DNA of 64,000 nucleotides from NCBI GenBank assembly GCA_024654025.1, contig JANLIR010000002.1, positions 168,959 to 232,958 on the forward strand. Direction: 5' to 3'. This DNA is from Candidatus Wolfebacteria bacterium (GTDB lineage Bacteria; Patescibacteriota; Minisyncoccia; UBA6257; UBA9933). The number at the start of each line of letters is the position of its first letter. The stretch's first letter is position 1. Positions 5,729-41,005 of this stretch are shown in pieces. The position numbers were made by a program, and so were the translations under genes. The notes beneath the pieces were generated by a model, which saw nothing but the letters and a program-made list of their open reading frames with translations, ran no database searches and had not been told where the DNA came from.

Positions 5729-6679
5729 TCAATAAATCTTCAGGAGACCCGGTTGTCCCATGGCCACTTTTATTGGGCCGAGCGGGTTTCCGTTAGTTTT
5801 CCATTTCCAAAAGCCAACCGGTCCCGCTTTCCGTGTTTCGCCGGAGCCCTCGCCAATTATGATCTGGTAAGAGTTTTGGGCGTCAATCGTTATGATTGTC
5901 CCAATGGGCGGGGTCCATGAAGTCACCGCAACGCTCCCGGCCGGAATAAAAACACCATTTCGTCCTTCTTCCGGCGTGACCACGATTTCTTTGAGAACCG
6001 GCGCACTGGGCGCAACCCCCGCTTCCGCGTTAGATGGTTTCATGGTGAGAGTCGTCACGATGCCATTGTCGATTCCCTTTGCTGAGTTCCTTGCGAGCTC
6101 GGCTGTGCGGGGAAGAAACAATGAAATGACGATTGTTATGAAAATCATCGATGCGACAAACGTTATTGCCCTTCCGTTGAAGATGGAAGTGCCTCCGAAA
6201 AGCCGAGTTCCGATAAAGATGATAAAGGCCAAGAGCAGCAGCAACGGGATCAGCTCGGGTCGTTTATCTATCGGAATGATGATAAGCATCAGGGCGAATG
6301 ATAACTCGGCGAATAATACGTGCAGCGTCAGTCGAACATACCGCTCTCCAAACCCCACTGCTGTTCTTCGCCAGATCGCGTCGATTATTAACGCAATCGG
6401 CGCGGCCAGTAAAGAAAGCAAGATCGTGAAGAACGCCCAAACAAGTCCCGCAACCGAAATCCACATCGAGAATCCGAAAATTCCCAGAAGCAGGATTGGT
6501 ATGGGCAGAAGCATCATTACGATTGCGAGCCGCGAAAGCCCGACCCGATATACTTCAAAATCGGTTCTGTTATCGCCCCCAACAAGGGCAATGACCTCGG
6601 CGGCGTCCGCCGCGCCGGTGATGATTGTGTCGAGAATGAGCCGCAGCGTTAAGAGTATTTCACGAAGTGTTTCACGCAT
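5729..6679 (-). CDS. Hypothetical multi-pass membrane protein with a C-terminal extracytoplasmic domain, in a GC-rich islet
   Basis: The tracked ORF is 5729..6784. The likely true start is the ATG at 6679 (MRETLREIL…), preceded by AAAGGAGG and overlapping the upstream stop (ATGCGTGA). About 5 TM helices, then a ~130-aa Gly/Pro/Thr-rich soluble tail. Local GC is roughly 55% against a ~38% background. Confidence 0.5.
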   Translation of the reverse strand: MRETLREILLTLRLILDTIITGAADAAEVIALVGGDNRTDFEVYRVGLSRLAIVMMLLPIPILLLGIFGFSMWISVAGLVWAFFTILLSLLAAPIALIIDAIWRRTAVGFGERYVRLTLHVLFAELSFALMLIIIPIDKRPELIPLLLLLAFIIFIGTRLFGGTSIFNGRAITFVASMIFITIVISLFLPRTAELARNSAKGIDNGIVTTLTMKPSNAEAGVAPSAPVLKEIVVTPEEGRNGVFIPAGSVAVTSWTPPIGTIITIDAQNSYQIIIGEGSGETRKAGPVGFWKWKTNGNPLGPIKVAMGQPGLLKIY

Positions 6680-7564: not shown

Positions 7565-7649
7565 GTCCTCGTGGCGGAAATGGAATACGCGCAGCGCTTA
7601 GGACGCTGTCCCGCAAGGGTTGTGGGTTCGACTCCCACCGAGGACACCA
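7565..7649 (+). tRNA. tRNA-Leu (anticodon TAG), class II with long variable arm; CCA encoded
   Basis: Acceptor GTCCTCG/CGAGGAC; anticodon arm CAGCG-CTTAGGA-CGCTG; variable stem CCC-GCAA-GGG; T-arm GTGGG-TTCGACT-CCCAC; ACCA at the 3' end. Preceded by a TATAAT -10 element at about 7543. Confidence 0.8.
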
Positions 7650-7809: not shown

Positions 7810-7827
7810 GACTCCCACCGAGGACAC
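7810..7827 (+). repeat. 18-bp direct repeat of the tRNA-Leu 3' end (candidate att-site remnant)
   Basis: GACTCCCACCGAGGACAC at 7810-7827 is identical to the last 18 nt of the tRNA body (7630-7647). It lies 4 bp from the stop of the tyrosine recombinase gene. Confidence 0.6.
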
Positions 7828-7831
7828 AAAA

Positions 7832-8827
7832 TTATCCCCTTCTTCTTCCGTGAAATGTTTTGTGTATTTCTTTGAGTTCTTTATTTGTTAAATGCGTGTA
7901 AATTTGGGTTGTGGAAATATTGCTATGGCCTAAAAGTTCTTGCACAGACCTTAAATCCGCTCCTCCGATTAATAAATCAGTGGCAAAGCTATGCCGGAGC
8001 AAATGCGGGTGGATTTTTTGCGGTATCCCCGCTTTTCGGCCGTAAAAATCTATCAAGCGCTGAATTGCGCGAGGAATAATTCTCCCGATAACTTTCGGAT
8101 TTGCTTGCCCTGAGCTCATCGAGTCTGAGACTCTCAGAGTCGAATGACTTGTCGAACGGGTTGCTTTAGTTAAGCTTACAAACAGCGCTTCTTCGGCATC
8201 GGTTCGTTTTCCTAAATAATTTTTTATAGCTTTCTTGGCGGATTCGGATAAAAACACCACTCTTATTTTCCCGCCCTTGCCCCGCACGGAAATTTCTCCC
8301 CTATTCAAATCAAAATACCGGCTCAAAGAACATAATTCTGAAACGCGAAGCCCGGTTGAAAACAAAACTTCCAAAATCGCTTTGTCGCGAAGTCCTTTTA
8401 AATCGTTTGTTTTGGGCGCTGCCATAAGCCGTTCCAAATCCGAGTATTCCATTATATTGATTTGCCGGTTTGGAATTCTAGGAAGCTCGATTTTTTCCGA
8501 AGCTAAAACCCTGTAGTCGTTTTTCGCCAAAAATTTCAAAAAGTTTCTAAGCGCTATTATGTAGTAGCTTTGGGTTGTGCGTTTAAAGTTTTCTCCATCT
8601 CTGGGATTATGAAGCCGCGCCAGATAGATCCGAAAATCTCTTACGTTGTCAGCGGTGATATCGCCCTCGGATTTTATTTTGGCGAAATCAAAAAACTTCG
8701 TTAAATAGTGCTCATAATTTTCCCGCGTGTCTTTAGTCCTGCCTTTTTCAATCTCAAGATAATCAAGATAGTTTTTGAGGAGTTTGTTTATGTCAGCCAT
8801 AGCTTCGCAACCTGTAACTTGTAACAA
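7832..8827 (-). CDS. Tyrosine site-specific recombinase (XerC/XerD / phage-integrase family)
   Basis: 331 aa. N-terminal SAM-like core-binding domain; catalytic motifs LFSTGLRVSEL, HPHLLRHSFATDLL, LGHSNISTTQIYTH (R…HxxR…Y). About 25-aa insertion relative to canonical XerD before the HxxR box. Confidence 0.85.
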   Translation of the reverse strand: MLQVTGCEAMADINKLLKNYLDYLEIEKGRTKDTRENYEHYLTKFFDFAKIKSEGDITADNVRDFRIYLARLHNPRDGENFKRTTQSYYIIALRNFLKFLAKNDYRVLASEKIELPRIPNRQINIMEYSDLERLMAAPKTNDLKGLRDKAILEVLFSTGLRVSELCSLSRYFDLNRGEISVRGKGGKIRVVFLSESAKKAIKNYLGKRTDAEEALFVSLTKATRSTSHSTLRVSDSMSSGQANPKVIGRIIPRAIQRLIDFYGRKAGIPQKIHPHLLRHSFATDLLIGGADLRSVQELLGHSNISTTQIYTHLTNKELKEIHKTFHGRRRG

Positions 8828-16767: not shown

Positions 16768-17199
16768 ATGCAAACAAAAAAAATTACAGCAGAATATATT
16801 AGGGGCTTTATTGAGGGCGTGGGAACTTTTACTTTCACAACCTCGTCACGGGGTTTCAATAAAAAGGTTAAAATACCAACTTTTCAATTAAGAATGAATA
16901 TTCGAGATAAACGGTTAATTGAATTGATTAAAGGACATCTCGGACTTAAAAATAGGGTTTATATGTATCATTATCCGGGAACTGATGGCGCAAAACGAGG
17001 GCCACAAGCGATGTTAATAGTCCGAGAAATAGGTAATCTGAAAAATATAATCATCCCTTTCTTTTACGATAAGCTGGTTGGGTATAAAGCAGCCCAATTT
17101 AATAAGTGGCTTGAAAGAATAGGTAAAGACTCGGAAGTGCCAGAGGGATTTAAGATTCTATACCGTCTTCATAAATCCGGTTGGTTTTCAAAGAAATAG
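16768..17199 (+). CDS. LAGLIDADG-family homing endonuclease (single-motif, free-standing)
   Basis: 143 aa; YIRGFIEGVGTF is a LAGLIDADG-type motif (cf. LAGFIDGEGSF). The size fits homodimeric I-CreI-like enzymes. Confidence 0.6.
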   Translation: MQTKKITAEYIRGFIEGVGTFTFTTSSRGFNKKVKIPTFQLRMNIRDKRLIELIKGHLGLKNRVYMYHYPGTDGAKRGPQAMLIVREIGNLKNIIIPFFYDKLVGYKAAQFNKWLERIGKDSEVPEGFKILYRLHKSGWFSKK

Positions 17200-17483: not shown

Positions 17484-18137
17484 CTAATAGGACGCGAAAA
17501 TACCCTTTGCCCACCCCCGGATTTTTAAAGATAGCCCAACATTACAGATGTAGATTTCAAAAGTTCCATAAGGAAGGCCCTCTTTTTTGGATTTTGTGGC
17601 TCTTTTTACTGAGAGTTTGAAAAACTGCTTTAAAGGGATGCCGGAAATTTCCGACCAGTATTTTTCTGTTCCCCGATGATCAAGGTGGGGATAGATATAA
17701 ATATGCCCCCGGAATTTCTGTTCCGGAACCTCACAAACATCCCTAAAAAAGGCCATCATTAACCTAACTATATTCGGGTCGCTGTTTGAGAACCGGACAA
17801 GGCCTTTTTGGGTTTTCCCACACCCTGCCCAATACAAAACCGAGCCAATTAGCCAAAGCTCACTTCTAGTTATTTTCTTTACCTGCTTTTGCGCTTGGTC
17901 GATAAGGTTTTCTCGTGTAGCTGTTTCCCGAGCCAGTCTGGTTGCGCGTCTTTTTTCCACTACCGAAAGCTTTACGGCGCGCTTTGATAGCGTTTTCTCC
18001 TGGTCTTTAGTTAGCGCGATGTTGCGGACCCATAAGCTCGCGCTACTTTTTGAAACGTTTAAGTTTTTCGCGATCTCGTTCAGAGAGTAACCATAAGCTC
18101 GGAGTTCTCGCGCTTTTTGTTTTTCAGCCTGCTTCAT
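17484..18137 (-). CDS. HTH plus LAGLIDADG-like domain protein (possible degenerate homing endonuclease / maturase-like)
   Basis: 217 aa. N-terminal sigma70-region-4-like HTH (LRAYGYSLNEIAKNLNVSKSSASLWVRNI). C-terminal segment SELWLIGSVLYWAGCGKTQ…VRLMMAFFRDV resembles a LAGLIDADG helix lacking the acidic residues. Confidence 0.35.
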   Translation of the reverse strand: MKQAEKQKARELRAYGYSLNEIAKNLNVSKSSASLWVRNIALTKDQEKTLSKRAVKLSVVEKRRATRLARETATRENLIDQAQKQVKKITRSELWLIGSVLYWAGCGKTQKGLVRFSNSDPNIVRLMMAFFRDVCEVPEQKFRGHIYIYPHLDHRGTEKYWSEISGIPLKQFFKLSVKRATKSKKEGLPYGTFEIYICNVGLSLKIRGWAKGIFASY

Positions 18138-18220
18138 AATCGAACTGATGAAGATATTTACTATGCTGAATATAGCATACAGGTTCGATTATTACAATAA
18201 AAAGAAGTTTGATTTCTGTG

Positions 18221-18290
18221 CGCGTTGAGGGGATTGAACCCCCGACCTGTCGCCTAAGGCGACCGTTCTAACCAACTGCTCCGACGCTTC
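18221..18290 (-). other. tRNA-like sequence, apparently degenerate (pseudo-tRNA)
   Basis: Minus strand: D-arm-like GAGCAGTTGGTTAGAAC, arm GTCGC-CTTAG-GCGAC with only a 5-nt loop, good T-arm GGGGG-TTCAATC-CCCTC. The 3' strand AACGCGC has no complementary 5' acceptor strand. Preceded by the hairpin CTCCGAC-CGAAGC-GTCGGAG. Confidence 0.3.
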
Positions 18291-18339
18291 GGTCGGAGCC
18301 CCGACTTCGTATTAGCGAACGTCGGAGAGCTAAAAATTG

Positions 18340-18568
18340 TGGACGCGCCCCGACTCGAACGGGGGACCTTCTCGGTGTCCCGCACAAAGTGGGTGCTATA
18401 GGATTCGAACCTATGACCTTCGCAGTGTAAATGCGACGCTCTAACCAACTGAGCTAAGCACCCACTTTAAGCGGGATTGCGATTTGTTTTTAAAAATTTT
18501 ATATCAAATTAAATTTTTAGACAAATCGGGAATAAACGAGACGCTCTAACCAACTGAGCTACGCGTCC
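18340..18568 (-). other. Interrupted tRNA-Val-like gene (outer halves) hosting a complete tRNA-Val in its anticodon-loop region
   Basis: 5' part (plus coords ~18535-18568): GGACGCG-TA-GCTC-AGTTGGTTAG-AGC-G-TCTCG-TTT… 3' part (18340-18384): …ACAC-CGAGA-AGGTC-CCCCG-TTCGAGT-CGGGG-CGCGTCC-A. Acceptor GGACGCG/CGCGTCC and anticodon stem TCTCG/CGAGA pair perfectly across a ~155-nt insert. Confidence 0.5.
18390..18463 (-). tRNA. tRNA-Val (anticodon TAC)
   Basis: GGGTGCT-TA-GCTC-AGTTGGTTAG-AGC-G-TCGCA-TTTACAC-TGCGA-AGGTC-ATAGG-TTCGAAT-CCTAT-AGCACCC-A. Flanked by imperfect inverted repeats CCCGCTTAAAGT / ACTTTGTGCGGG (18464-18475, 18379-18390). Confidence 0.8.
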
Positions 18569-19184: not shown

Positions 19185-19206
19185 CTCCTTATTATAGCAA
19201 AAAAAG

Positions 19207-19278
19207 TGCGAGTGGCAGGGATCGAACCTGCGACGGCCGTCTTATAAGGGCGGTGCTCTACCACTGAGCTACACTCGC
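19207..19278 (-). tRNA. tRNA with anticodon TAT (reads AUA; Ile-type)
   Basis: GCGAGTG-TA-GCTC-AGTGGTA-GAGC-A-CCGCC-CTTATAA-GACGG-CCGTC-GCAGG-TTCGATC-CCTGC-CACTCGC-A. One C·A mismatch in the anticodon stem. Anticodon UAU, not the usual bacterial CAU-lysidine. Confidence 0.55.
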
Positions 19279-19394
19279 AAATTATTTCATAACCAGCTGC
19301 CTGTCCGCCGCAGTCCGCCTATTGGCGGACGAAGGAGGAAGCTACACGCGCAAAGATAGCAATAAATATAGCAAAAACTTTTGTATAGTCAAAG

Positions 19395-30563: not shown

Positions 30564-31004
30564 ATGGTTAATTCAATCCAACAATTAAGAGACATCACCG
30601 GCGCGGGAGTGATGGAGTGCAAACGCGCTTTAGAAGAGGCCGACAACGATTTGGAAAAAGCCAAGGCCATAATTTTTGAAAAAGGATTGGTCAAGGCGGA
30701 CAAAAAAAGCGAGCGTTCAACCGGTTCCGGAATTTTGGAAACTTACGTTCACAACGGAAGAGTCGCGGTTCTTTTGAAGCTTTTGTGCGAAACCGACTTT
30801 GTTGCCAGAAATGATTTGTTTAAAGAATTAGCGCACCAAATTGCCATGCATATAGCCGCGATGAACCCTGAAAACATAGACGAGTTGCTTAAACAGAATT
30901 TTATAATGAACGAAGAAATTACCGTGGAAGATCTTATCAAACAAAGCATCGCCAAACTTGGCGAAAATATGAAACTTGAAAAATTCTGCCGCTACGAATT
31001 ATAG
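30564..31004 (+). CDS. tsf: Elongation factor Ts (short form)
   Basis: 146 aa. N-terminal UBA-like IQQLRDITGAGVMECKRALEEADNDLEKA plus core. 1 nt after the rpsB stop. Confidence 0.8.
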   Translation: MVNSIQQLRDITGAGVMECKRALEEADNDLEKAKAIIFEKGLVKADKKSERSTGSGILETYVHNGRVAVLLKLLCETDFVARNDLFKELAHQIAMHIAAMNPENIDELLKQNFIMNEEITVEDLIKQSIAKLGENMKLEKFCRYEL

Positions 31005-31028
31005 TTCTCATATTGTATAATTAAAATT

Positions 31029-31478
31029 GTGAATATGACTATTAGTTTTGTTTTCGAAATCATATTGATGGCGAGCTTGGGGGCCATGATTTATCTTGTG
31101 GCTCGGGCTGTGCCGCGCGTAAACGACACGGTTTTGGACGAAGGTTCGATAAATAAAGGACTTGGAGAAAGATTCGGTAAATTTATCGATTCTCTTCCTA
31201 TAGAAAAAGCGGACCTGACAATCAGCCGCATTTTGGAGAGGGCGTTAAGAAATTTGAAATTATTGGTAATGAGAGTTGATAACAAGTTAAGCCAGCATTT
31301 GACGAAATTTAAGGCCAAGATTATGAATGGCGAACAAAACGGCAAAAAGCCCACGCTGTTTTCAGTTTCAAACGAGGATAAAGAAAATGGAAATAATTCT
31401 GATATTTCTCCAGCCGAAGAATTATTGAAAGAAACTTCTGATCTTGAAAAAAATAAAAAAGAAGCGGAGGATATATAA
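31029..31478 (+). CDS. Hypothetical membrane-anchored protein
   Basis: 149 aa. N-terminal TM helix, charged C-terminal part; no motif. Confidence 0.35.
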   Translation: MNMTISFVFEIILMASLGAMIYLVARAVPRVNDTVLDEGSINKGLGERFGKFIDSLPIEKADLTISRILERALRNLKLLVMRVDNKLSQHLTKFKAKIMNGEQNGKKPTLFSVSNEDKENGNNSDISPAEELLKETSDLEKNKKEAEDI

Positions 31479-31483
31479 AACTT

Positions 31484-31567
31484 GCGCAGGTGGCGGAGTG
31501 GTCAATCGCAACAGACTGTAAATCTGTCGCCCTTGTGGCTACGGGGGTTCGAATCCCTCCCTGCGCA
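31484..31567 (+). tRNA. tRNA-Tyr (anticodon GTA), class II
   Basis: Acceptor GCGCAGG/CCTGCGC; anticodon arm ACAGA-CTGTAAA-TCTGT; long variable arm; T-loop TTCGAAT. Confidence 0.8.
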
Positions 31568-31579
31568 CACTTTTTTGTC

Positions 31580-31760
31580 GCCGAAGTAGCTCAGTGGCAG
31601 AGCAACTGTTTTGCGTCAGCCCCGTTAGATATGCCGGGATAGCTCAGTGGTAGAGCAACTGTTTTGTAAACAGTAGGTCGTCGGTTCGAATCCGACTCTC
31701 GGCTCTCTCGGTGTATCTAACGGGGTAAATAGGTCGCGAGTTCGAATCTCGCCTTCGGCT
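31580..31760 (+). other. Interrupted tRNA-Thr-like gene (outer halves) hosting a complete tRNA-Thr(TGT)
   Basis: 5' part GCCGAAG-TA-GCTC-AGTGGCA-GAGC-A-ACTGT-TTTG… (31580-31614), nearly identical to the 5' half of the inner tRNA. 3' part …TAAAT-AGGTC-GCGAG-TTCGAAT-CTCGC-CTTCGGC-T (31726-31760). Acceptor GCCGAAG/CTTCGGC pairs perfectly across the insert; the 3' anticodon-stem strand is missing (ACAGT absent). Confidence 0.45.
31633..31704 (+). tRNA. tRNA-Thr (anticodon TGT)
   Basis: GCCGGGA-TA-GCTC-AGTGGTA-GAGC-A-ACTGT-TTTGTAA-ACAGT-AGGTC-GTCGG-TTCGAAT-CCGAC-TCTCGGC-T. Flanked by a perfect 12-bp inverted repeat CCCCGTTAGATA (31620-31631) / TATCTAACGGGG (31714-31725). Confidence 0.8.
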
Positions 31761-31770
31761 CTAGACAAAA

Positions 31771-31842
31771 GCCAGAGTAGTTCAGTGGTAGAACGCTTTC
31801 TTGGTAAGAAAGAGGTCGGGAGTCCGATTCTCCCCTCTGGCT
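31771..31842 (+). tRNA. tRNA-Thr (anticodon GGT)
   Basis: GCCAGAG-TA-GTTC-AGTGGTA-GAAC-G-CTTTC-TTGGTAA-GAAAG-AGGTC-GGGAG-TCCGATT-CTCCC-CTCTGGC-T. Unusual T-loop (TCCGATT, C at position 55). Confidence 0.75.
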
Positions 31843-31960
31843 CAAAATTAACTTTTAACAAGCAATTCGTAACCAGTAACGGATATTTTTATAAAAACTT
31901 GAAAAGTTACGGATTCTGCGTTATAAGTTAATAGTTACAAGTTACTAGTTAATAATTATT

Positions 31961-32131
31961 ATGGCTAAAACAAAAGCAAAAACCCAGTTAATTCGGCTAC
32001 GCTGTCAAATCTGCAAGAGGATTAATTATTACAGCAAGAAAAACAAAGGGTCAGCTGAAAAAAAAATTGAGTTAAAAAAATATTGCAAGTGGTGCCAAAA
32101 ATCCATAGTTCATAAAGAAGCCAAAAAATAA
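31961..32131 (+). CDS. rpmG: 50S ribosomal protein L33
   Basis: 56-aa ORF below the track's size cutoff: MAKTKAKTQLIRLRCQICKRINYYSKKNKGSAEKKIELKKYCKWCQKSIVHKEAKK, with the L33 Cys4 zinc ribbon. Promoter TTGAAA-17-TATAAG upstream. Confidence 0.8.
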   Translation: MAKTKAKTQLIRLRCQICKRINYYSKKNKGSAEKKIELKKYCKWCQKSIVHKEAKK

Positions 32132-32141
32132 TTTTGGCTTT

Positions 32142-32212
32142 GGGAGCTTAGTTAAGTGGCATAATAGTTGTCTCCAAAACAACGGTCGGGGGTTCGATTC
32201 CCTCAGCTCCCG
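32142..32212 (+). tRNA. tRNA-Trp (anticodon CCA)
   Basis: Acceptor GGGAGCT/AGCTCCC; anticodon arm GTTGT-CTCCAAA-ACAAC; T-arm GGGGG-TTCGATT-CCCTC. Confidence 0.75.
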
Positions 32213-32570
32213 CGAAATATTCGATAAAAATCTCGTATTTTGTCAATTGATAGCCCACCCTTTTTTTGCTATACTTCCGACGGAGCTCTGGTAGTGATTC
32301 TCGGATCAAATTATTTGCGAGGGGAGGATAAAAGTGCTTTAACTTCATTGTTAGGGTTGAATCCGCCCACCTGGCACTAGCCGGGATAATCCAACACCAG
32401 GGCTCCTTTTGCGCTTACGCTAACACGATACTAATATACTAATTTTACTAATGATACGAATTGGATACGAATTCGTATTTATTAGTATCATTCGAATGCA
32501 TTCGTCCTTCGACTTACTCAGGACGACCCTGAGTCGGTCGAATGGGTCGTATATTGGTATCACAATCACA

Positions 32571-33815
32571 ATGAGGCGTTTCTATTTTGATTACGCTGCT
32601 ACTACTCCGATTGACCCAGAGGTTTTAAAAGAAATAAATTCTAATTTAAGGAATAATTTTGGCAATCCCGGATCGCTCAATTTTTTCGGGCAAGCCGCAA
32701 TGGCAATGGTTGATAAATCGCGCGAAAAAATCGCCAACGCAATCAACGCTGATTTTCGGGAAATAATTTTTACCGGATCCGCGACGGAGGCAAACAATCT
32801 CGCACTCAGAGGAATACTAAAAAACGCCCGCCTGCGCCAAGGCTTCGGCGGGCAGGTAAAAACTAAAAGCAAAAAACCGAGAATAATTGTTTCAGCTATT
32901 GAACACGAATCTATTTTAGAAACTGCTAGAGATTTATCCGCCAGAGGCGGATCCGCCTTTGGCGGAGAAAAAGAAGGCGTGGAAATTATTTATTTGCCGG
33001 TTGATAAAAACGGCGTTGTGGATTTAAAGAAGTTAGAGAACGCATTGAACGAAAGAACGATTTTGGTTTCAATAATGTACGCGAACAACGAAACCGGAGT
33101 CATACAACCAATAGCAGAAATCGCCGAAATTATAAAAAAATTCAAAGAAAAAAAATACCCTAAACCCTACACCCTAAACCCTACACCCTATTTTCACACC
33201 GACGCTGTCCAGGCGTTCCAATTTCTGGATTGCAATATTAAAAACTTAGGGGTAGATTTAATGACTTTATCGGCTCATAAAATTTACGGACCAAAAGGAA
33301 TTGGCGCGTTATACGTACGCAACTCACAACTCACAACCTACAACTTACAACCAATAATTACTGGAGGAAAACAAGAATTTGGATTAAGATCCGGCACTGA
33401 AAACGTTGCCATGATAGCTGGTTTCGCCAAAGCAATTGAATTGGCAAATGAGAAACGGGAAAAAGAGAAAAAAAGAATTTTTTTGCTGGCGCAATATTTT
33501 TTTAAAGAAATAAAAAAGATTGTTCCGAGCGCCCAACTAAACGCAGGGAAGGCCAAGCGGCTGCCTAATATTTTAAATATCGCTTTCTCGGGTTATGACG
33601 CGGAGAGTTTGCTGATAAAATTTGACCTTAACGGCACTGCTGTTTCCCGAGGCTCGGCGTGTATGGCGCGTTCGTCTCAGTCGTCTTATGTATTAAAAGA
33701 AATGGGACTAAGTGAAAGCGAGCAGCGCTCCAGTTTGCGGTTTAGCTTCGGCAGATTTACAACAAAAGAAGAAATGTCTAAAGCCTTGAAAATTATAAAA
33801 AAAACATTAAAATAG
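32571..33815 (+). CDS. Cysteine desulfurase (IscS/NifS family)
   Basis: Class V aminotransferase fold: SATEANNLALRG, HTDAVQAF, SAHKIYGPKGIGALYV, GLRSGTEN, AVSRGSAC (catalytic Cys). Start chosen at 32571 (MRRFYFDY); the tracked ORF starts at 32451. Contains two in-frame simple-repeat inserts. Confidence 0.85.
   Translation: MRRFYFDYAATTPIDPEVLKEINSNLRNNFGNPGSLNFFGQAAMAMVDKSREKIANAINADFREIIFTGSATEANNLALRGILKNARLRQGFGGQVKTKSKKPRIIVSAIEHESILETARDLSARGGSAFGGEKEGVEIIYLPVDKNGVVDLKKLENALNERTILVSIMYANNETGVIQPIAEIAEIIKKFKEKKYPKPYTLNPTPYFHTDAVQAFQFLDCNIKNLGVDLMTLSAHKIYGPKGIGALYVRNSQLTTYNLQPIITGGKQEFGLRSGTENVAMIAGFAKAIELANEKREKEKKRIFLLAQYFFKEIKKIVPSAQLNAGKAKRLPNILNIAFSGYDAESLLIKFDLNGTAVSRGSACMARSSQSSYVLKEMGLSESEQRSSLRFSFGRFTTKEEMSKALKIIKKTLK
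33157..33190 (+). repeat. In-frame 14-nt tandem repeat (ACCCTAAACCCTAC x 2.4) inside the cysteine desulfurase gene
   Basis: Encodes KPYTLNPTPY; contains the telomere-like heptamer CCCTAAA. Confidence 0.8.
33321..33352 (+). repeat. In-frame heptanucleotide repeat (AACTCAC/AACCTAC/AACTTAC x 4.5) inside the cysteine desulfurase gene
   Basis: Encodes NSQLTTYNLQP immediately before the conserved GG…GLRSGTEN box. Confidence 0.8.
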
Positions 33816-38131: not shown

Positions 38132-39208
38132 ATGTTAGGCAAAGGTTTAGAATCTTTAATACCAAAAAAATCTCAAAACGACGATTCGTCGAGTGGTTCT
38201 TTTGATGATCAGAAAACAGATTCTCCGGTTGGCGGAGGTGTTGGGTTTAAAATAGAAAACAAAATAAAAGATATTTCCTTTAGCGAAAAAGAAGAAGAAA
38301 GAAAAGAACTTTTTCAAAAATCGCAAGAAAAAGATCAAGAACAAATTGTAAAACCAGGCAAACACCACCAGGAAGCGATTTTTCATATAGAAACCGAAAA
38401 AATAAAATCTAATCCGCACCAACCGCGAAAACATTTTGACGAGGAATCGTTAAAAGAATTAGCGGATTCAATCCGTGAATTCGGAATTATCCAGCCGCTT
38501 ATAGTTTCTAAAATTGAAAAAGAAACCGATTTTGGCACAGAGGTTGAGTATCAGCTCATTGCCGGAGAACGTCGTTTGATGGCTGCTAAACTTGTGGGCC
38601 TTGAAAGAGTGCCAGTTGTTATAAGAAGATTTTCTCAAAAAGCCGAAGGGCTTGAAGTGGCAATTGTGGAAAATCTTCAGCGAGCTGACCTTAATTCTAT
38701 TGAGGTGGCGCGCGCTTACGCTAAACTTCAAGACGAATTCGGTTTGACTCAAAGAGAAGTCGCCGCTCGAATGGGAAAGAGCCGTGAAACAATCGCCAAC
38801 ACATTACGACTTTTAAATTTGCCAAGCGAAATTCAAGACGCTTTGGCGGATAATAAAATAAACGAAAGCCAGGCGAGGATGCTTTTGGTGGTTGATGATC
38901 ATATAGCGCAGAAAAAACTTTTTGAGGAACTTTTGAACAAGGGTTTAACAGTTCGAGAACTTCGCTCTCGCATTAGGCGTGCCAAGCCGAATTCAGAAAG
39001 CCAAAAAGAAGAAGCCGGCGGTTTTCAAGACGAAGAAACTCACCAGCTTGAAGAAAGATTGGAACAAACGCTCGGCACGCGGGTGAAAATAGACAAGAAA
39101 AATACGTCAGCTGGCGGAGGCGGAAAAATTGTTATATCTTTTTATTCTCCGGAAGAGCTTTATGGTATCGTAAAAAAACTTAATCCGACAGATGAAAATT
39201 TCCAATGA
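38132..39208 (+). CDS. parB: Chromosome partitioning protein ParB/Spo0J
   Basis: 358 aa. ParB box GERRLMAAKLVGLERVPVVIRR, HTH region. About 90-aa low-complexity N-terminal extension. Confidence 0.85.
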   Translation: MLGKGLESLIPKKSQNDDSSSGSFDDQKTDSPVGGGVGFKIENKIKDISFSEKEEERKELFQKSQEKDQEQIVKPGKHHQEAIFHIETEKIKSNPHQPRKHFDEESLKELADSIREFGIIQPLIVSKIEKETDFGTEVEYQLIAGERRLMAAKLVGLERVPVVIRRFSQKAEGLEVAIVENLQRADLNSIEVARAYAKLQDEFGLTQREVAARMGKSRETIANTLRLLNLPSEIQDALADNKINESQARMLLVVDDHIAQKKLFEELLNKGLTVRELRSRIRRAKPNSESQKEEAGGFQDEETHQLEERLEQTLGTRVKIDKKNTSAGGGGKIVISFYSPEELYGIVKKLNPTDENFQ

Positions 39209-40925
39209 ACATATTTCTAAAATTCTTCGAGAGATAGCGGTGTATTTGGAAATGCAAAATGTTCCATTTAAGCCGCGCGCGTACGAAAAAACCGCCATCG
39301 CGGTTGCCGACCTTTCCGAAGATTTGCACGCCCTTTATGAGAAGGGCGGCATTAAAGCTATCGAAGAAATCGAGGGTGTAGGCGTTTCCATTGCCGAGAA
39401 AATTGAAGAAATAATAAAAACCGGATATTTAAAATATTACGACCAGCTGAAGAAAAAAACTCCGGTTGACGTGAGTTCTTTAATGTCAGTTGAGGGTCTT
39501 GGGCCCAAAAAAATCAAAAAACTTTACCAAGAGTTGAAAATTACAAATGTTGAGGAATTGGAAAGATCGGCAAGAGCCGGAAAAATCAGAAGTTTGGAGG
39601 GATTTGGCGAAAAAACCGAGGAAAATATTTTAAAAAGTTTGGAATTTTTACGGCAAGCAGGCGGCAGATTTATTCTGGGCTATATAATGCCCGATATCAG
39701 GAAAATCGAAAGCGATTTAAAAAAATTAAAAGAAGTTAAAAAAATCATTGTTGCCGGTTCAGTCCGCCGCAGAAAAGAAACAATAGGTGATGTTGATATT
39801 TTGATTGTTTCTAGCAAGCCCGCTCCGGTTATGGATTTCTTTGTGAATATGCCAAATGTCGCCAGAGTCGTGACTCACGGAAGCACTAAGTCGGCCGTAA
39901 AACTGAAAAACGGGCTTGATGTTGATGTCTGTGTTGTAGCGGAGAAATCCTACGGCGCGGCTTTAAATTATTTTACCGGCTCTAAATACCACAACATCGC
40001 TTTACGGGAAATCGCGATCAAGTATGGGTTTAATCTAAATGAATACGGGTTGTTTAAAGGTAAGAAAACAATTACTGGGAAAACCGAAGAAGAGATTTAT
40101 AAAAAATTAGGGCTTGATTATATTGAGCCGGAAATGCGTGAAAACGAAGGGGAAATTGAGCTCTCTAGCGAACATAAACTTCCTAAATTGATTGGCTATA
40201 ATGATTTGCAAGGGGATTTGCAGATTCAAACTAATTGGACTGACGGTTCAAACACAATAGAAGAATACGCAGAAGTTGCGATTAAAAAAGGATTGAAATA
40301 TATCGTTATAACTGATCATACAAAAAGGTTGGCAATGACTGGCGGACTTGACGAGAAAAAACTTTTAAAGCAAATCGCTGAAATAGGAAAAATTAATGAA
40401 AAGTTATCAGCTAAGGGCTACAAGTTTAAAATTCTTGCCGGCAGCGAGGTGGATATTTTGAAAGACGGAACTTTAGATTTAAAAGATGAGGCTTTAAAAA
40501 AACTTGATGTTTGCGGGACCGCAATCCATTCTTATTTTAATTTACCAAAAGAAGAACAGACAAAAAGAATAATTCGCGCCATGGAAAATCCGCACGTTGA
40601 TATAATTTTTCATCCCACCGGAAGAATTATTAATCGTCGACCAGCTTATGAGGTCGATATTGACGAGATAATTAAAGCCGCCAAAAGAACCAACACGGTT
40701 TTAGAAATTGACGCATTTCCGGACAGATTGGATTTGAAAGACGACTATATTAGAAAATGTGTGTTTGCCGGAGTGAAATTAGCCATTGATAGCGACGCGC
40801 ACTTGGTCAGCCATATGGATTTTCTGGAATTCGGCATAGCCCAAGCTCGCCGCGGCTGGGCCACTAAAGACGATATTATAAACACAAGGCCGGTAGAAGC
40901 AATGCTTAAATTATTAAAGAAATAA
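39192..40925 (+). CDS. Family X DNA polymerase with C-terminal PHP domain (PolX)
   Basis: 577 aa. HhH lyase domain, pol-beta palm (GSVRRRKETIGDVDILI) and C-terminal PHP domain (DHTKRLAMTGG…AIDSDAH). Confidence 0.8.
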   Translation: MKISNEHISKILREIAVYLEMQNVPFKPRAYEKTAIAVADLSEDLHALYEKGGIKAIEEIEGVGVSIAEKIEEIIKTGYLKYYDQLKKKTPVDVSSLMSVEGLGPKKIKKLYQELKITNVEELERSARAGKIRSLEGFGEKTEENILKSLEFLRQAGGRFILGYIMPDIRKIESDLKKLKEVKKIIVAGSVRRRKETIGDVDILIVSSKPAPVMDFFVNMPNVARVVTHGSTKSAVKLKNGLDVDVCVVAEKSYGAALNYFTGSKYHNIALREIAIKYGFNLNEYGLFKGKKTITGKTEEEIYKKLGLDYIEPEMRENEGEIELSSEHKLPKLIGYNDLQGDLQIQTNWTDGSNTIEEYAEVAIKKGLKYIVITDHTKRLAMTGGLDEKKLLKQIAEIGKINEKLSAKGYKFKILAGSEVDILKDGTLDLKDEALKKLDVCGTAIHSYFNLPKEEQTKRIIRAMENPHVDIIFHPTGRIINRRPAYEVDIDEIIKAAKRTNTVLEIDAFPDRLDLKDDYIRKCVFAGVKLAIDSDAHLVSHMDFLEFGIAQARRGWATKDDIINTRPVEAMLKLLKK

Positions 40926-41005
40926 ACGCGTGCTTGCCCCGCACCAAAACAAGTGTTGGTGCGGGGGCCATTGGAGAAAATGCTAAAAATGTTAAAATAA
41001 AAAAC

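Follow-up and report, generated by a model that had tools for sequence, protein, structure and literature searches.

A tRNA-Thr(UGU) gene of a Wolfebacteria genome (here type B) has been overwritten by a protein-less cassette of 117 nt that carries a same-identity tRNA from a different lineage (type C). The site occupies positions 31580-31760 (+) of a 64,000-nt stretch of DNA that was analysed as a whole and that we call the window. The cassette is one of a family, common in Wolfebacteria and Paceibacteria-type Patescibacteria, that overwrites same-identity tRNA genes again and again, leaving ‘Russian dolls’ of one tRNA gene inside another. In full-text searches of the literature, neither nested tRNA genes nor cassettes that carry a tRNA were described, and overwriting by a hairpin-framed tRNA is apparently an undescribed, recurrent route of gene replacement.

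The tRNA-Thr nest

The outer type B gene is split after anticodon nucleotide 35, in the anticodon loop. Between its parts lie, in order, a linker, an arm, the complete type C tRNA (72 of the 117 nt), a 9-nt remnant of a 3′ acceptor strand, and the arm that complements the first. Loci fetched for comparison carry L numbers. The features of the nest are as follows.

31425-31454, +, promoter-like site upstream of tRNA-Tyr (consensus match only)
31580-31613, +, 5′ part of the outer type B tRNA-Thr(UGU) pseudogene, GCCGAAGTAGCTCAGTGGCAGAGCAACTGTTTTG: 5′ acceptor strand, D arm, 5′ anticodon-stem strand, and loop as far as G35
31614-31619, +, linker CGTCAG, whose final G closes the helix as a G.U pair with the T of TAAA
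31620-31632, +, 5′ arm of the cassette helix: the 12-mer CCCCGTTAGATA (31620-31631) and a T that pairs with G
31633-31704/5, +, inner type C tRNA-Thr(UGU), anticodon TGT (ARAGORN; Rfam RF00005 tRNA, 75.8 bits)
31705-31713, +, trailer CTCTCGGTG, a relic or duplicate of the 3′ acceptor strand
31714-31725, +, 3′ arm of the cassette helix, TATCTAACGGGG, complement of CCCCGTTAGATA
31726-31760, +, 3′ part of the outer type B gene: TAAA, T, variable loop AGGTC, T arm, acceptor strand CTTCGGC, discriminator T

An earlier note on this DNA, written from its letters, had described a tRNA-Thr(TGT) nested in a tRNA-Thr-like gene and flanked by a perfect 12-bp inverted repeat, and every element of that description was found in its place. 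The outer 5′ part, which the note called nearly identical to the inner 5′ half, matches it at 88% identity, and GCCGAAG and CTTCGGC, the two acceptor strands of the outer gene, can pair as it had read them. Each outer half is identical at 32/32 nt to the intact tRNA-Thr of locus L002. The 3′ part reads TAAAT AGGTC GCGAG TTCGAAT CTCGC CTTCGGC T and ends at 31760. At its junction the three 3′ anticodon-stem nucleotides CAG are absent (TAAAT stands where TAAACAGT is expected), so the outer gene is unable to make a tRNA.

The inner gene is a canonical tRNA with no encoded CCA. Its acceptor and T stems differ from those of the outer gene by compensated changes, which places the two genes in different lineages. 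A type C gene with an identical 5′ arm is also present in L001, the closest relative; a metagenome scan found no exact copy of the type C tRNA. At this locus no other Thr(UGU) gene is intact, and type C is presumably the working one. A consensus search returned no promoter-like site inside the insert, and the sole such site on the + strand ahead of the tRNA cluster is that at 31425-31454, from which the inner tRNA is therefore probably transcribed by read-through.

The arm 12-mer is confined to these two places in 64 kb, where 0.16 matches are expected, and two matches arose in 0/100 shuffles. A repeat tool extends the pairing beyond the arms to 24 nt at 83% complementarity. In the minimum-free-energy fold the trailer can pair with the 5′ acceptor strand of the cargo, giving a hairpin of ∼21 bp on this 24-nt inverted repeat; sister cassettes have CATCGGC, CCTCGGC or CTTCGGC at the trailer position. 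The fold of the full 181 nt has z = -6.1 relative to shuffles. The linker is related to the CGCCAG, CTCG and (CGNAG)n linkers of sister cassettes. Two independent Hainich groundwater assemblies (L081, L082) carry the same arrangement with one SNP, which lies outside it.

Several other identities were tried for this segment and rejected. Searches with cmscan, both at the gathering score and at E<=1, returned tRNAs and a sub-threshold YrlA match as the only known RNA families. The latter (bacterial Y RNA, RF02553) reached 33.9 bits where the gathering score is 69, extends from the trailer over the outer 3′ half into the next tRNA, and is explained by its likeness to tRNA. For group I introns, cmscan at E<=1 over 31400-31900 gave no RF00028, with tRNA and weak chance matches as its entire output. 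The outer gene, with CAG absent, was not called by ARAGORN when introns were allowed, and reading of the junctions for a bulge-helix-bulge (BHB) intron or split tRNA found a continuous helix with no 3-nt bulge pair spaced 4 bp apart. ARAGORN also makes a spurious tRNA-SeC call at the nest. An exact-protein look-up of the DedA-like neighbour gave no match.

Empty sites and serial replacement

The earlier note had proposed looking for the uninterrupted state in relatives, and it is found at both nests of the window. At L253 an intact type B gene, with a 5′ part identical to that in the window, stands between tRNA-Tyr and tRNA-Thr(GGU) with the same spacer; L253 is thus an empty site. A step further back, L003 has an intact type A gene, which in L002 is interrupted by a cassette with type B as its cargo. 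The order across relatives is thus A split by a B cassette (L002) and B split by a C cassette (window). At L280 one cassette is nested three times, with identical junctions in every layer, and three layers are also present in L220 and L063. The locus accordingly has a filled (window) and an empty (L253) allele, and the exact junctions are repeated within different outer genes and within the self-nested L280. The outer halves of relatives are decayed, truncated or invaded by GC hairpins, and L001 has lost its outer 3′ half entirely.

The second nest of the window involves tRNA-Val, and candidate endonuclease genes lie near it.

16768-17199, +, free-standing single-domain LAGLIDADG endonuclease gene (Pfam LAGLIDADG_1, E 8e-9), conserved in relatives
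17484-18137, -, ORF with an N-terminal helix-turn-helix (HTH) and a C-terminal LAGLIDADG-fold domain, candidate tRNA-gene homing endonuclease, adjoining the Val nest
18339-18568, -, outer tRNA-Val(UAC), intact after removal of a 155-nt insert at 35/36 (ARAGORN with introns)
18389-18463, -, inner tRNA-Val(UAC), on the helix TCCCGCTTAAAGT / ACTTTGTGCGGGA

The arms of the Val cassette differ from those of the Thr cassette. Removing the insert restores an intact tRNA in the Val case, not in the Thr case. In loci L288-L294 the place of this Val nest is taken by one uninterrupted tRNA-Val.

The earlier note had argued that a real mechanism inserts a tRNA copy, borne on a hairpin, into a homologous resident tRNA gene at its anticodon loop, be it gene replacement or a mobile hairpin with a tRNA on it; the empty sites, the recurrence, the nesting and the conserved stem all support it. 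The pattern it had named as speaking against this, simple tandem duplicates with no conserved stem, did not hold.

A family of hairpin-framed cassettes

Scanning metagenomes yielded at least 29 further cassettes of like architecture. A gapless helix of at least 10 bp frames 29 of 82 metagenomic tRNA-Thr(UGU) matches, equal to 19 of 65 distinct contexts, and only 1 of 936 phage tRNAs. In many of 80 genome loci an intact tRNA lies between orphan halves of a tRNA of its own identity. The cargos seen in many genomes are tRNA-Thr(UGU), Thr(GGU), Trp, Pro and Val, and cassettes sit inside one another's cargo. Phage tRNA clusters also hold nested tRNA genes, these without helices; in one of them, L092, an Asn cargo lies inside a Lys gene that is intact after exact removal of the insert.

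The junction TAAAT/AGGT, with 3 nt missing, is common to L255, L224, L216, L287, L248, L220 and L280. Counted by cassette, it occurs in at least 8 others of the subfamily, within different outer genes. The gap in the 3′ anticodon-stem strand, from which the earlier note concluded that the outer gene may be a decayed copy, is therefore a copied junction and not private decay of the copy in the window. A second junction type, TAAA/GTY, has 6 nt missing. Both types recur beside outer T stems and outer anticodon stems that vary, one outer anticodon-stem strand is missing in every Thr(UGU) subfamily, and the outer flanks at the junction vary among loci (ACGGT, ACTGT, ACGCT, ATGGT). That the junction TAAA[CAG]T is common to the whole subfamily argues that the insert was copied, not transposed.

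The arms vary in sequence yet stay complementary. Since 12- and 13-nt arms fall out of register in a MAFFT alignment of whole cassettes, covariation was counted on the outer 10 bp only: 7 of these 10 pairs have changed on both sides with all cells paired, a result reached by 0/500 shuffles. Helix position 6 occurs as GC, CG, AU and UA, and the closing G.U pair is invariant in 12/12 in-register cassettes. The homologous arm CCCCGTTAGACTT (L255/L284) differs from the window arm by compensatory changes. Watson-Crick pairs make up 416 of 445 helix pairs. Mismatches of the G.U and A.C kinds number 9 and 4 under unbiased scoring, a difference that is not significant, and these counts do not show whether the helix matters at the RNA or the DNA level. 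The covariation could stem from hairpin-templated correction of DNA quasi-palindromes and not from selection.

Across different cargos the arms share the consensus (T/C)CCC-N-CAC(C)-TTTT. Solo GC hairpins with this consensus lie at 40937-40966 of the window and are scattered through pseudo-halves.

Endonuclease genes at tRNA clusters

The HTH and LAGLIDADG-fold family of the ORF at 17484-18137 is found beside tRNA clusters in 20 of the fetched loci; its occurrences next to the clusters include that in the window and two in L001. In relatives, nests of tRNA-Tyr and tRNA-Trp contain GIY-YIG ORFs, and Tyr nests contain LAGLIDADG_3 ORFs as well. No endonuclease ORF lies in or beside the tRNA-Thr cassette (31000-32200), none of ∼45 Thr(UGU) cassettes contains an ORF, and a profile made from inserts of the Tyr and Trp nests detected no GIY-YIG gene in the window. 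Among metagenome loci the HTH and LAGLIDADG family shows no clear enrichment at nested over non-nested ones. The local endonucleases are candidate cutters of tRNA genes.

Mechanism

We think it rather probable that the element is a ‘disrupt-and-replace’ tRNA cassette with no ORF, and that gene conversion resembling homing is how it spreads. Judging from the anatomy, homology-directed repair or gene conversion would place a copy of the cassette in an intact target gene, in the style of intron homing, with the two halves of the broken outer tRNA serving as homology arms. Copying of this kind would account for four observations: that cargo identity always equals target identity, that the exact junction of a subfamily, small deletion included, is carried into unrelated outer genes, that a cassette can enter its own cargo, and that no transposase is needed. 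Selection would act as a filter, in that a tRNA gene of a tiny genome may be disrupted only when the insert brings along a tRNA of like identity. More tentatively, the trigger is probably a double-strand break where near-palindromic DNA codes for the anticodon arm, and the enzyme that cuts there, acting in trans, would probably come from one of the LAGLIDADG or GIY-YIG homing-endonuclease genes crowded into the tRNA clusters. The helix may insulate the folding of the cargo and its processing by RNase P and RNase Z from the near-identical outer halves in a read-through transcript, or it may loop the insert out as a DNA hairpin while it is copied.

Besides the missing endonuclease ORFs and the lack of clear enrichment at nested loci, two features speak against this reading. 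The cargo keeps the anticodon-arm sequence of its target and so confers no immunity against a nuclease that recognises this arm, which leaves the classical logic of a homing drive incomplete. The outer flanks adjacent to the junction differ among loci, so that co-conversion tracts would have to be very short.

It is also possible, though we would not put it as high as an even chance, that protein-less hairpin-framed tRNA genes form an unrecognised class of selfish element, a natural ‘disrupt-and-rescue’ drive that propagates as a copy placed in the anticodon arm of the resident gene of the same identity, kills that gene and thereby becomes indispensable. In such a drive the cargo remains a target, so nested layers build up.

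Alternative explanations

Could the cassette instead be a non-autonomous hairpin transposon? Its arms would then be terminal inverted repeats, and an enzyme from another locus would recognise them as a DNA hairpin; it would insert at the tip of hairpin-forming DNA, for instance the anticodon arm, and insertions would survive only where the cargo is the tRNA that was destroyed. We consider this unlikely. MITEs and REP/RAYT palindromic elements are small, ORF-free and hairpin-forming. So is the cassette, which has terminal inverted repeats like a MITE (the perfect 12-bp arms), GC-rich stems, and an arm consensus common to different cargos; in one subfamily a GTAG/CAG head precedes the GC-rich stem, possibly in the manner of REP elements (sister subfamily 2 reads GCGTAG/CCCC, the window CGTCAG/CCCC). 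Near-pure Watson-Crick helices are what DNA palindromes predict, the solo GC hairpins of the window and of pseudo-halves are in keeping with a transposon, and the Asn cargo inside a Lys gene at L092 would be one chosen by selection, not homology. Unlike these elements, however, the cassette has no target-site duplication (TTTTG/CGTCAG ... GGGG/TAAAT, with 3 target nt missing instead), carries functional cargo, is restricted to same-identity tRNA genes and has its junction deletions copied, the same small target deletion accompanying independent insertions where cut-and-paste predicts none. No IS200/RAYT-like ORF was found among 5,724 ORFs of the window and loci by a crude HUH/Y motif search of low sensitivity, no autonomous partner was seen, and the arm 12-mer of the window recurs nowhere else in the 64 kb. 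The copied junctions thus favour homology-directed copying over a cut-and-paste mobile hairpin.

Both tRNAs would be made if the insert were a new kind of intron, whose inner tRNA is excised by RNase P and RNase Z, with cuts leaving 3′-OH and 5′-phosphate, after which an RNA ligase joins the outer halves held by the helix. The cassette helix does keep these halves together, the outer genes of the Val nest and of L092 are intact after exact removal of the insert, and position 35/36 is where group I introns occur in Patescibacteria (PMC13011429). An outer anticodon-stem strand is missing here and in every Thr(UGU) subfamily, however, the outer halves of relatives are broken down or, at L001, incomplete, inspection reveals no clear BHB motif, and group I introns gave no match; we give the intron reading very little credence. 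Still less probable is an ordinary local rearrangement, a tandem duplication with deletions or a replication slippage that involves no mobility and has a chance helix. The 88% identity of the outer and inner 5′ halves and the recombination-prone nature of tRNA clusters agree with it, but existing comparisons already contradict it: the inner and outer genes belong to different lineages, the outer halves form one gene that is intact at L253, the framed architecture with covarying arms occurs in dozens of unrelated loci, and the 12-mer pair is unexpected by chance. The window comes from a metagenome-assembled genome, in which repeated tRNA sequence might have misjoined reads. We regard such an assembly chimera as negligibly probable, since two independent ENA assemblies carry the same arrangement and the family is present in NCBI, JGI and ENA assemblies from many studies.

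Comparison with known systems

Integrative elements at tRNA genes measure kilobases, encode a tyrosine recombinase, restore only the 3′ part of the gene and leave one direct repeat. The cassette shares with them the logic of disrupting and restoring a tRNA gene and of leaving tRNA fragments behind, but it is a complete gene of ∼75 nt between both old halves and has no recombinase. Neither a recombinase gene nor a direct repeat of a tRNA 3′ end is present at the tRNA-Thr locus. A pattern of the integrase type does occur elsewhere in the window, at tRNA-Leu(UAG):

7565-7649, the tRNA; 7810-7827, an 18-nt repeat; 7832-8827, an ORF

In synthetic cleave-and-rescue gene drives an essential gene is destroyed, the element brings a rescue copy, and the element cannot be lost. 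By analogy only, the cassette likewise destroys an essential gene and supplies its rescue, whereas it is natural, has no nuclease in cis and does not recode the rescue copy.

Free-standing homing endonucleases of the T4 SegB type reside in phage tRNA clusters, where break repair copies the endonuclease gene with neighbouring tRNA sequence (PMC2330249, PMC13096335). A tRNA gene region is the target here too, and the Tyr and Trp nests of relatives contain GIY-YIG and LAGLIDADG ORFs; the Thr cassette, in contrast, is ORF-free, sits within its target gene and not between genes, supplies an entire substitute gene and has a covarying helix as its frame. Nakagawa et al. 2026 (PMC13011429) described group I introns in the tRNA genes of Patescibacteria, at position 35/36. 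With these the cassette has in common the phylum, a place in the anticodon loop and a tRNA gene hidden from standard annotation; it differs in having no ribozyme and exons that cannot be rejoined, function being restored by replacement and not by splicing. In archaea, interrupted, split and permuted tRNA genes are rebuilt into tRNAs by way of the BHB motif and the splicing endonuclease (PMC4090602, PMC4390854). The cassette resembles split tRNAs in its break in or near the anticodon loop and in a helix joining the halves, and departs from them in having no evident BHB, an outer gene that cannot be rebuilt and an insert that is itself a tRNA gene.

Implications

tRNA genes are usually taken as stable, vertically inherited core genes, and here they behave as replaceable cargo: a single locus records three successive tRNA-Thr genes, A, B and C, across related genomes. 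The cassette illustrates how an element can invade an essential single-copy gene with no splicing by bringing a spare. The outer halves and nested genes that result mislead tRNA finders, and horizontal transfer may have supplied tRNA sequences in these lineages, which touches their use in phylogeny. The many LAGLIDADG and GIY-YIG genes found in ultra-small bacteria may have a link to the turnover of tRNA genes, and the nested tRNAs of phage clusters indicate that the phenomenon may reach beyond Patescibacteria. If the selfish-element reading is true, Patescibacteria tRNA genes would be horizontally replaceable modules, and part of the odd tRNA sets and ‘missing’ tRNAs of these genomes would be explained.

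Structure of the Thr nest

The Thr nest comprises a complete tRNA-Thr(UGU) gene, carried on a cassette, between the two parts of a split tRNA-Thr(UGU) gene (window 31580-31760, plus strand). All features listed here lie on the plus strand.

31580-31613, plus: outer 5′ part GCCGAAGTAGCTCAGTGGCAGAGCAACTGTTTTG
31614-31619, plus: linker CGTCAG
31620-31631, plus: 5′ arm CCCCGTTAGATA, then T
31633-31704, plus: inner complete tRNA-Thr(TGT), ARAGORN and Rfam (75.8 bits)
31705-31713, plus: trailer CTCTCGGTG
31714-31725, plus: 3′ arm TATCTAACGGGG
ending at 31760, plus: outer 3′ part TAAAT AGGTC GCGAG TTCGAAT CTCGC CTTCGGC T

Only the inner gene is recognised by ARAGORN and Rfam; the outer one escapes both. 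The arm 12-mer has only two sites within the window (0.16 expected). Since the trailer is also able to pair with the cargo tRNA's 5′ acceptor strand, the inverted repeat grows to 24 nt at 83% in the repeat tool. The fold of the 181-nt nest has z = -6.1. The identical arrangement occurs in two independent Hainich groundwater assemblies; the nest is no assembly artefact, and the sequence, the arm count and these assemblies bear out the earlier note's description of a tRNA-Thr(TGT) embedded in a tRNA-Thr-like gene with a 12-bp inverted repeat. The ARAGORN intron search also returned a spurious tRNA-SeC(TCA) at window 31580-31843, joining the 5′ half of the outer gene to the 3′ end of tRNA-Thr(GGU).

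Upstream lie rpsB, a short EF-Ts gene and a 149-aa ORF, and the gene order is tRNA-Tyr, Thr nest, tRNA-Thr(GGU), rpmG, tRNA-Trp. A promoter-like site precedes tRNA-Tyr; none was found inside the Thr insert.

Empty sites and serial replacement

Three lineages of tRNA-Thr(UGU) (types A, B and C) are involved. Type B, the outer gene of the window, is intact in comparison locus L002, each window half matching 32/32. At the same locus of metagenomic contig L253, type B is uninterrupted; its neighbours are tRNA-Tyr on one side and, on the other, the same tRNA-Thr(GGU), and the spacer is nearly identical. Against this contig, CGTCAG...ACGGGG is an addition after G35 in the window, and CAG of the 3′ anticodon-stem strand is a loss. 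By sequence comparison, L253 is the empty site of the Thr cassette and the outer halves come from a real gene, later interrupted.

Type A (GCCACCT...AGGTGGC), the commonest tRNA-Thr(UGU) of the clade, is intact in L003. In L002 it is interrupted by a cassette with type B as cargo (arms TCCCCCACCATTT / AAATGGTGGGGGA), and type B in turn is interrupted in the window, by a cassette with type C as cargo. Locus L001, with an EF-Ts 96% identical to that of the window, shares type C and the 5′ arm with it; there the outer B is more degraded and tRNA-Thr(GGU) is nested too.

At window 18339-18568 (minus strand), tRNA-Val(UAC) is intact on removal of a 155-nt insert at 35/36 (after anticodon nucleotide 35), which carries an inner tRNA-Val(UAC) on the helix TCCCGCTTAAAGT / ACTTTGTGCGGGA. 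Relatives L288-L294 (including the genome of L001) have a single, unbroken tRNA-Val with the same neighbouring genes, so that the uninterrupted state for which the earlier note proposed a comparison of relatives was found for both Thr and Val. The Val insert also holds an AT-rich hairpin, CGATTTGT...ACAAATCG, recurring in cassettes of L063.

Extent of the family and its junctions

Eighty species-level genome loci were fetched by EF-Ts and searched for orphan tRNA halves, giving nests for Thr(UGU), Thr(GGU), Trp, Pro and Tyr. In leader/trailer duplex energy the nested tRNAs (-22 to -42 kcal/mol) are the extreme among 183 tRNAs (median -11.3). Intact Thr(UGU) genes of the B/C kind numbered 85 in one metagenome scan, 82 of them with enough flank; a strict gapless criterion finds the helix in 29 of these 82 (19 of 65 distinct contexts), and inspection by eye finds it in about 45, against only 1 of 936 phage tRNAs in the control.

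Thr(UGU) cassette sub-families (^ marks segment boundaries)
Sub-family 1: GAG^TCCCGCACCTTTT [tRNA] CATCGGC AAAAGGTGCGGGA^TAAA...; outer nt 25-35 absent
Sub-family 2: ...TTTTG^(CGNAG)2-3 CCCCNCAC(C)TTTT [tRNA] CNTCGGC AAAAGTGNGGGG^TAAA^GTY...; 6 outer nt absent
Sub-family 3 (the window's): ...TTTTG^CGYCAG or CTCG^(C/T)CCCG... [tRNA] ...ACGGGG^TAAAT^AGGT; 3 nt absent

Each junction is repeated beside differing outer T stems and differing outer anticodon stems. The earlier note had taken TAAAT as a sign that the outer gene may be a decayed copy; since the missing CAG is common to the sub-family and every junction recurs in varied outer contexts, the apparent decay is a family junction. An arm homologous to the window's occurs in L255/L284, altered by compensatory changes (GACTT/AAGTC vs GATAT/.TATC). 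In L280 one identical cassette is nested three times with the same junctions at every layer, and three layers also occur in L220 and L063.

A further cassette family (L218, L273, L279) is inserted ahead of the anticodon stem, after nt 24/25 and not at 35/36, with arms TCCCGATTTC.../...GAAATCGGGA or ...CTCTTTGT/ACAAAGAGGGAA. Phage clusters from IMG/VR (L092, L086/L155, L103, L109/L118, L127, L134/L189; at least 120 stretches scanned) hold nested tRNA genes without the flanking helix, such as a tRNA-Asn(GUU) directly in the anticodon loop of an apparently intact tRNA-Lys(UUU) (L092, about 6116-6330). In tRNA-Thr(GGU) of L020 (9864-10121), L022 (7068-7334), L024 (6503-6778) and L055 (9010-9267), inserts of 185-205 nt lack an inner tRNA; they probably represent the divergent group I introns of PMC13011429.

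Covariation of the helix

Among 26 distinct Thr(UGU) cassettes the arm sequences vary yet pair, position 6 being GC, CG, AU or UA. Twelve in-register cassettes, with arms chosen for pairing, were compared over their outer 10 bp: 100% of cells are paired and 7 of 10 pairs have changed on both sides; none of 500 shuffles matches this covariation, slid registers fall to 32-50% paired, and all twelve share the closing G.U pair. The same pattern as selection on the helix could arise from hairpin-templated correction of DNA palindromes. Cassette helices are 93% Watson-Crick, and internal G.U and A.C mismatches (9 vs 4, not significant) do not separate an RNA from a DNA role.

Endonuclease genes

In relatives (L071, L080, L036, L030, L257), the Tyr and Trp nests hold a short GIY-YIG ORF (Pfam E 1e-14 to 1e-16) and, after it, the inner tRNA on a leader/trailer helix. 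LAGLIDADG_3 ORFs lie inside other Tyr nests, and the window has a LAGLIDADG_1 gene at 16768-17199. No endonuclease gene was found at its Thr locus, and no Thr cassette carries an ORF. In the Tyr nests of L071 (6269-6770), L080 (6023-6470), L036 (5813-6193) and L257, a GC hairpin, e.g. CCCGACCGCAGTCGGG, wholly replaces the outer anticodon arm, and the variable arm holds the insert of GIY-YIG ORF and helix-borne inner tRNA-Tyr, flanked in L071 by a 41-nt direct repeat.

Other hairpins and tRNA genes in the window

Degenerate tRNA pieces with invading GC hairpins lie at 18218-18335 and 19290-19352 (both minus strand). Upstream of tRNA-Ile(UAU), GCGCGTGTAGCT[hairpin]CAGCTGGTTA resembles the 5′ half of the tRNA-Ile(UAU) intact in L292, and ...AGTTGGTTAGAACGGTCGCCTTAGGCGACAGGTCGGGGGTTCAATCCCCTCAACGCGCA, downstream of the Val nest, ends like its 3′ end; these pieces may be an older layer, 1.1 kb wide. 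The tRNA-Ile(UAU) itself (19206-19278, minus strand), with an anticodon unusual in bacteria, is conserved in L288-L294. Two tandem GC hairpins, ATCCGCCAGAGGCGGAT and TCCGCCTTTGGCGGA (32936-32966), inside a cysteine-desulfurase-like ORF (32451-33815), are of the kind that litters the tRNA pseudo-halves. The hairpin CCCCGCACCAA / TTGGTGCGGGG (40937-40966), directly behind the stop codon of ORF 39192-40925, shares the arm consensus of the cassette helices; it could be either an empty frame or a hairpin common in the genome at large. An exact 18-nt copy of the 3′ end of tRNA-Leu(UAG) (7565-7649) lies 160 nt on (7810-7827), before a tyrosine-recombinase-like ORF (7832-8827), the classical signature of an element integrated at a tRNA gene.

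Mechanism and alternatives

Insertion is polymorphic among the loci, and resident genes are replaced, repeatedly, by genes from another lineage; the junctions are copied and the arms covary. Copied junctions and self-nesting are predicted by homology-directed copying with the outer halves as homology arms, and not by cut-and-paste insertion; a hairpin transposon mobilised in trans is an unlikely source of the cassettes. Much less credible is a true 'tRNA-as-intron', which the missing outer stem strand excludes at the Thr locus. Local rearrangement is more improbable still, and an artefact, given the two assemblies, is the least probable of all.

Under homology-directed copying, cassettes would spread by homing-like gene conversion or recombination, set off when endonucleases acting in trans break tRNA genes. 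Homology and selection on single-copy essential tRNA genes would impose the match in identity, and the helix may insulate the folding and processing of the cargo, or act in DNA loop-out. The weak points of this mechanism are that the cargo is not immune, that it would require very short co-conversion tracts and that no nuclease is tied to the Thr cassettes.

The closest known systems are free-standing homing endonucleases of phage tRNA clusters (SegB), Patescibacteria tRNA group I introns at 35/36 (PMC13011429), integrase islands restoring tRNA 3′ ends, MITE and REP elements and archaeal split tRNAs; each has defining features that fail here. Nested tRNA genes and tRNA-bearing cassettes are undescribed in the full-text literature searched, whose journal coverage is partial, so that an earlier description is possible. 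The Thr cassette is a real, recurrent and apparently previously undescribed element, with well-supported structure and evolutionary behaviour, and nests of this kind create an annotation hazard, as in the false tRNA-SeC(TCA) call.
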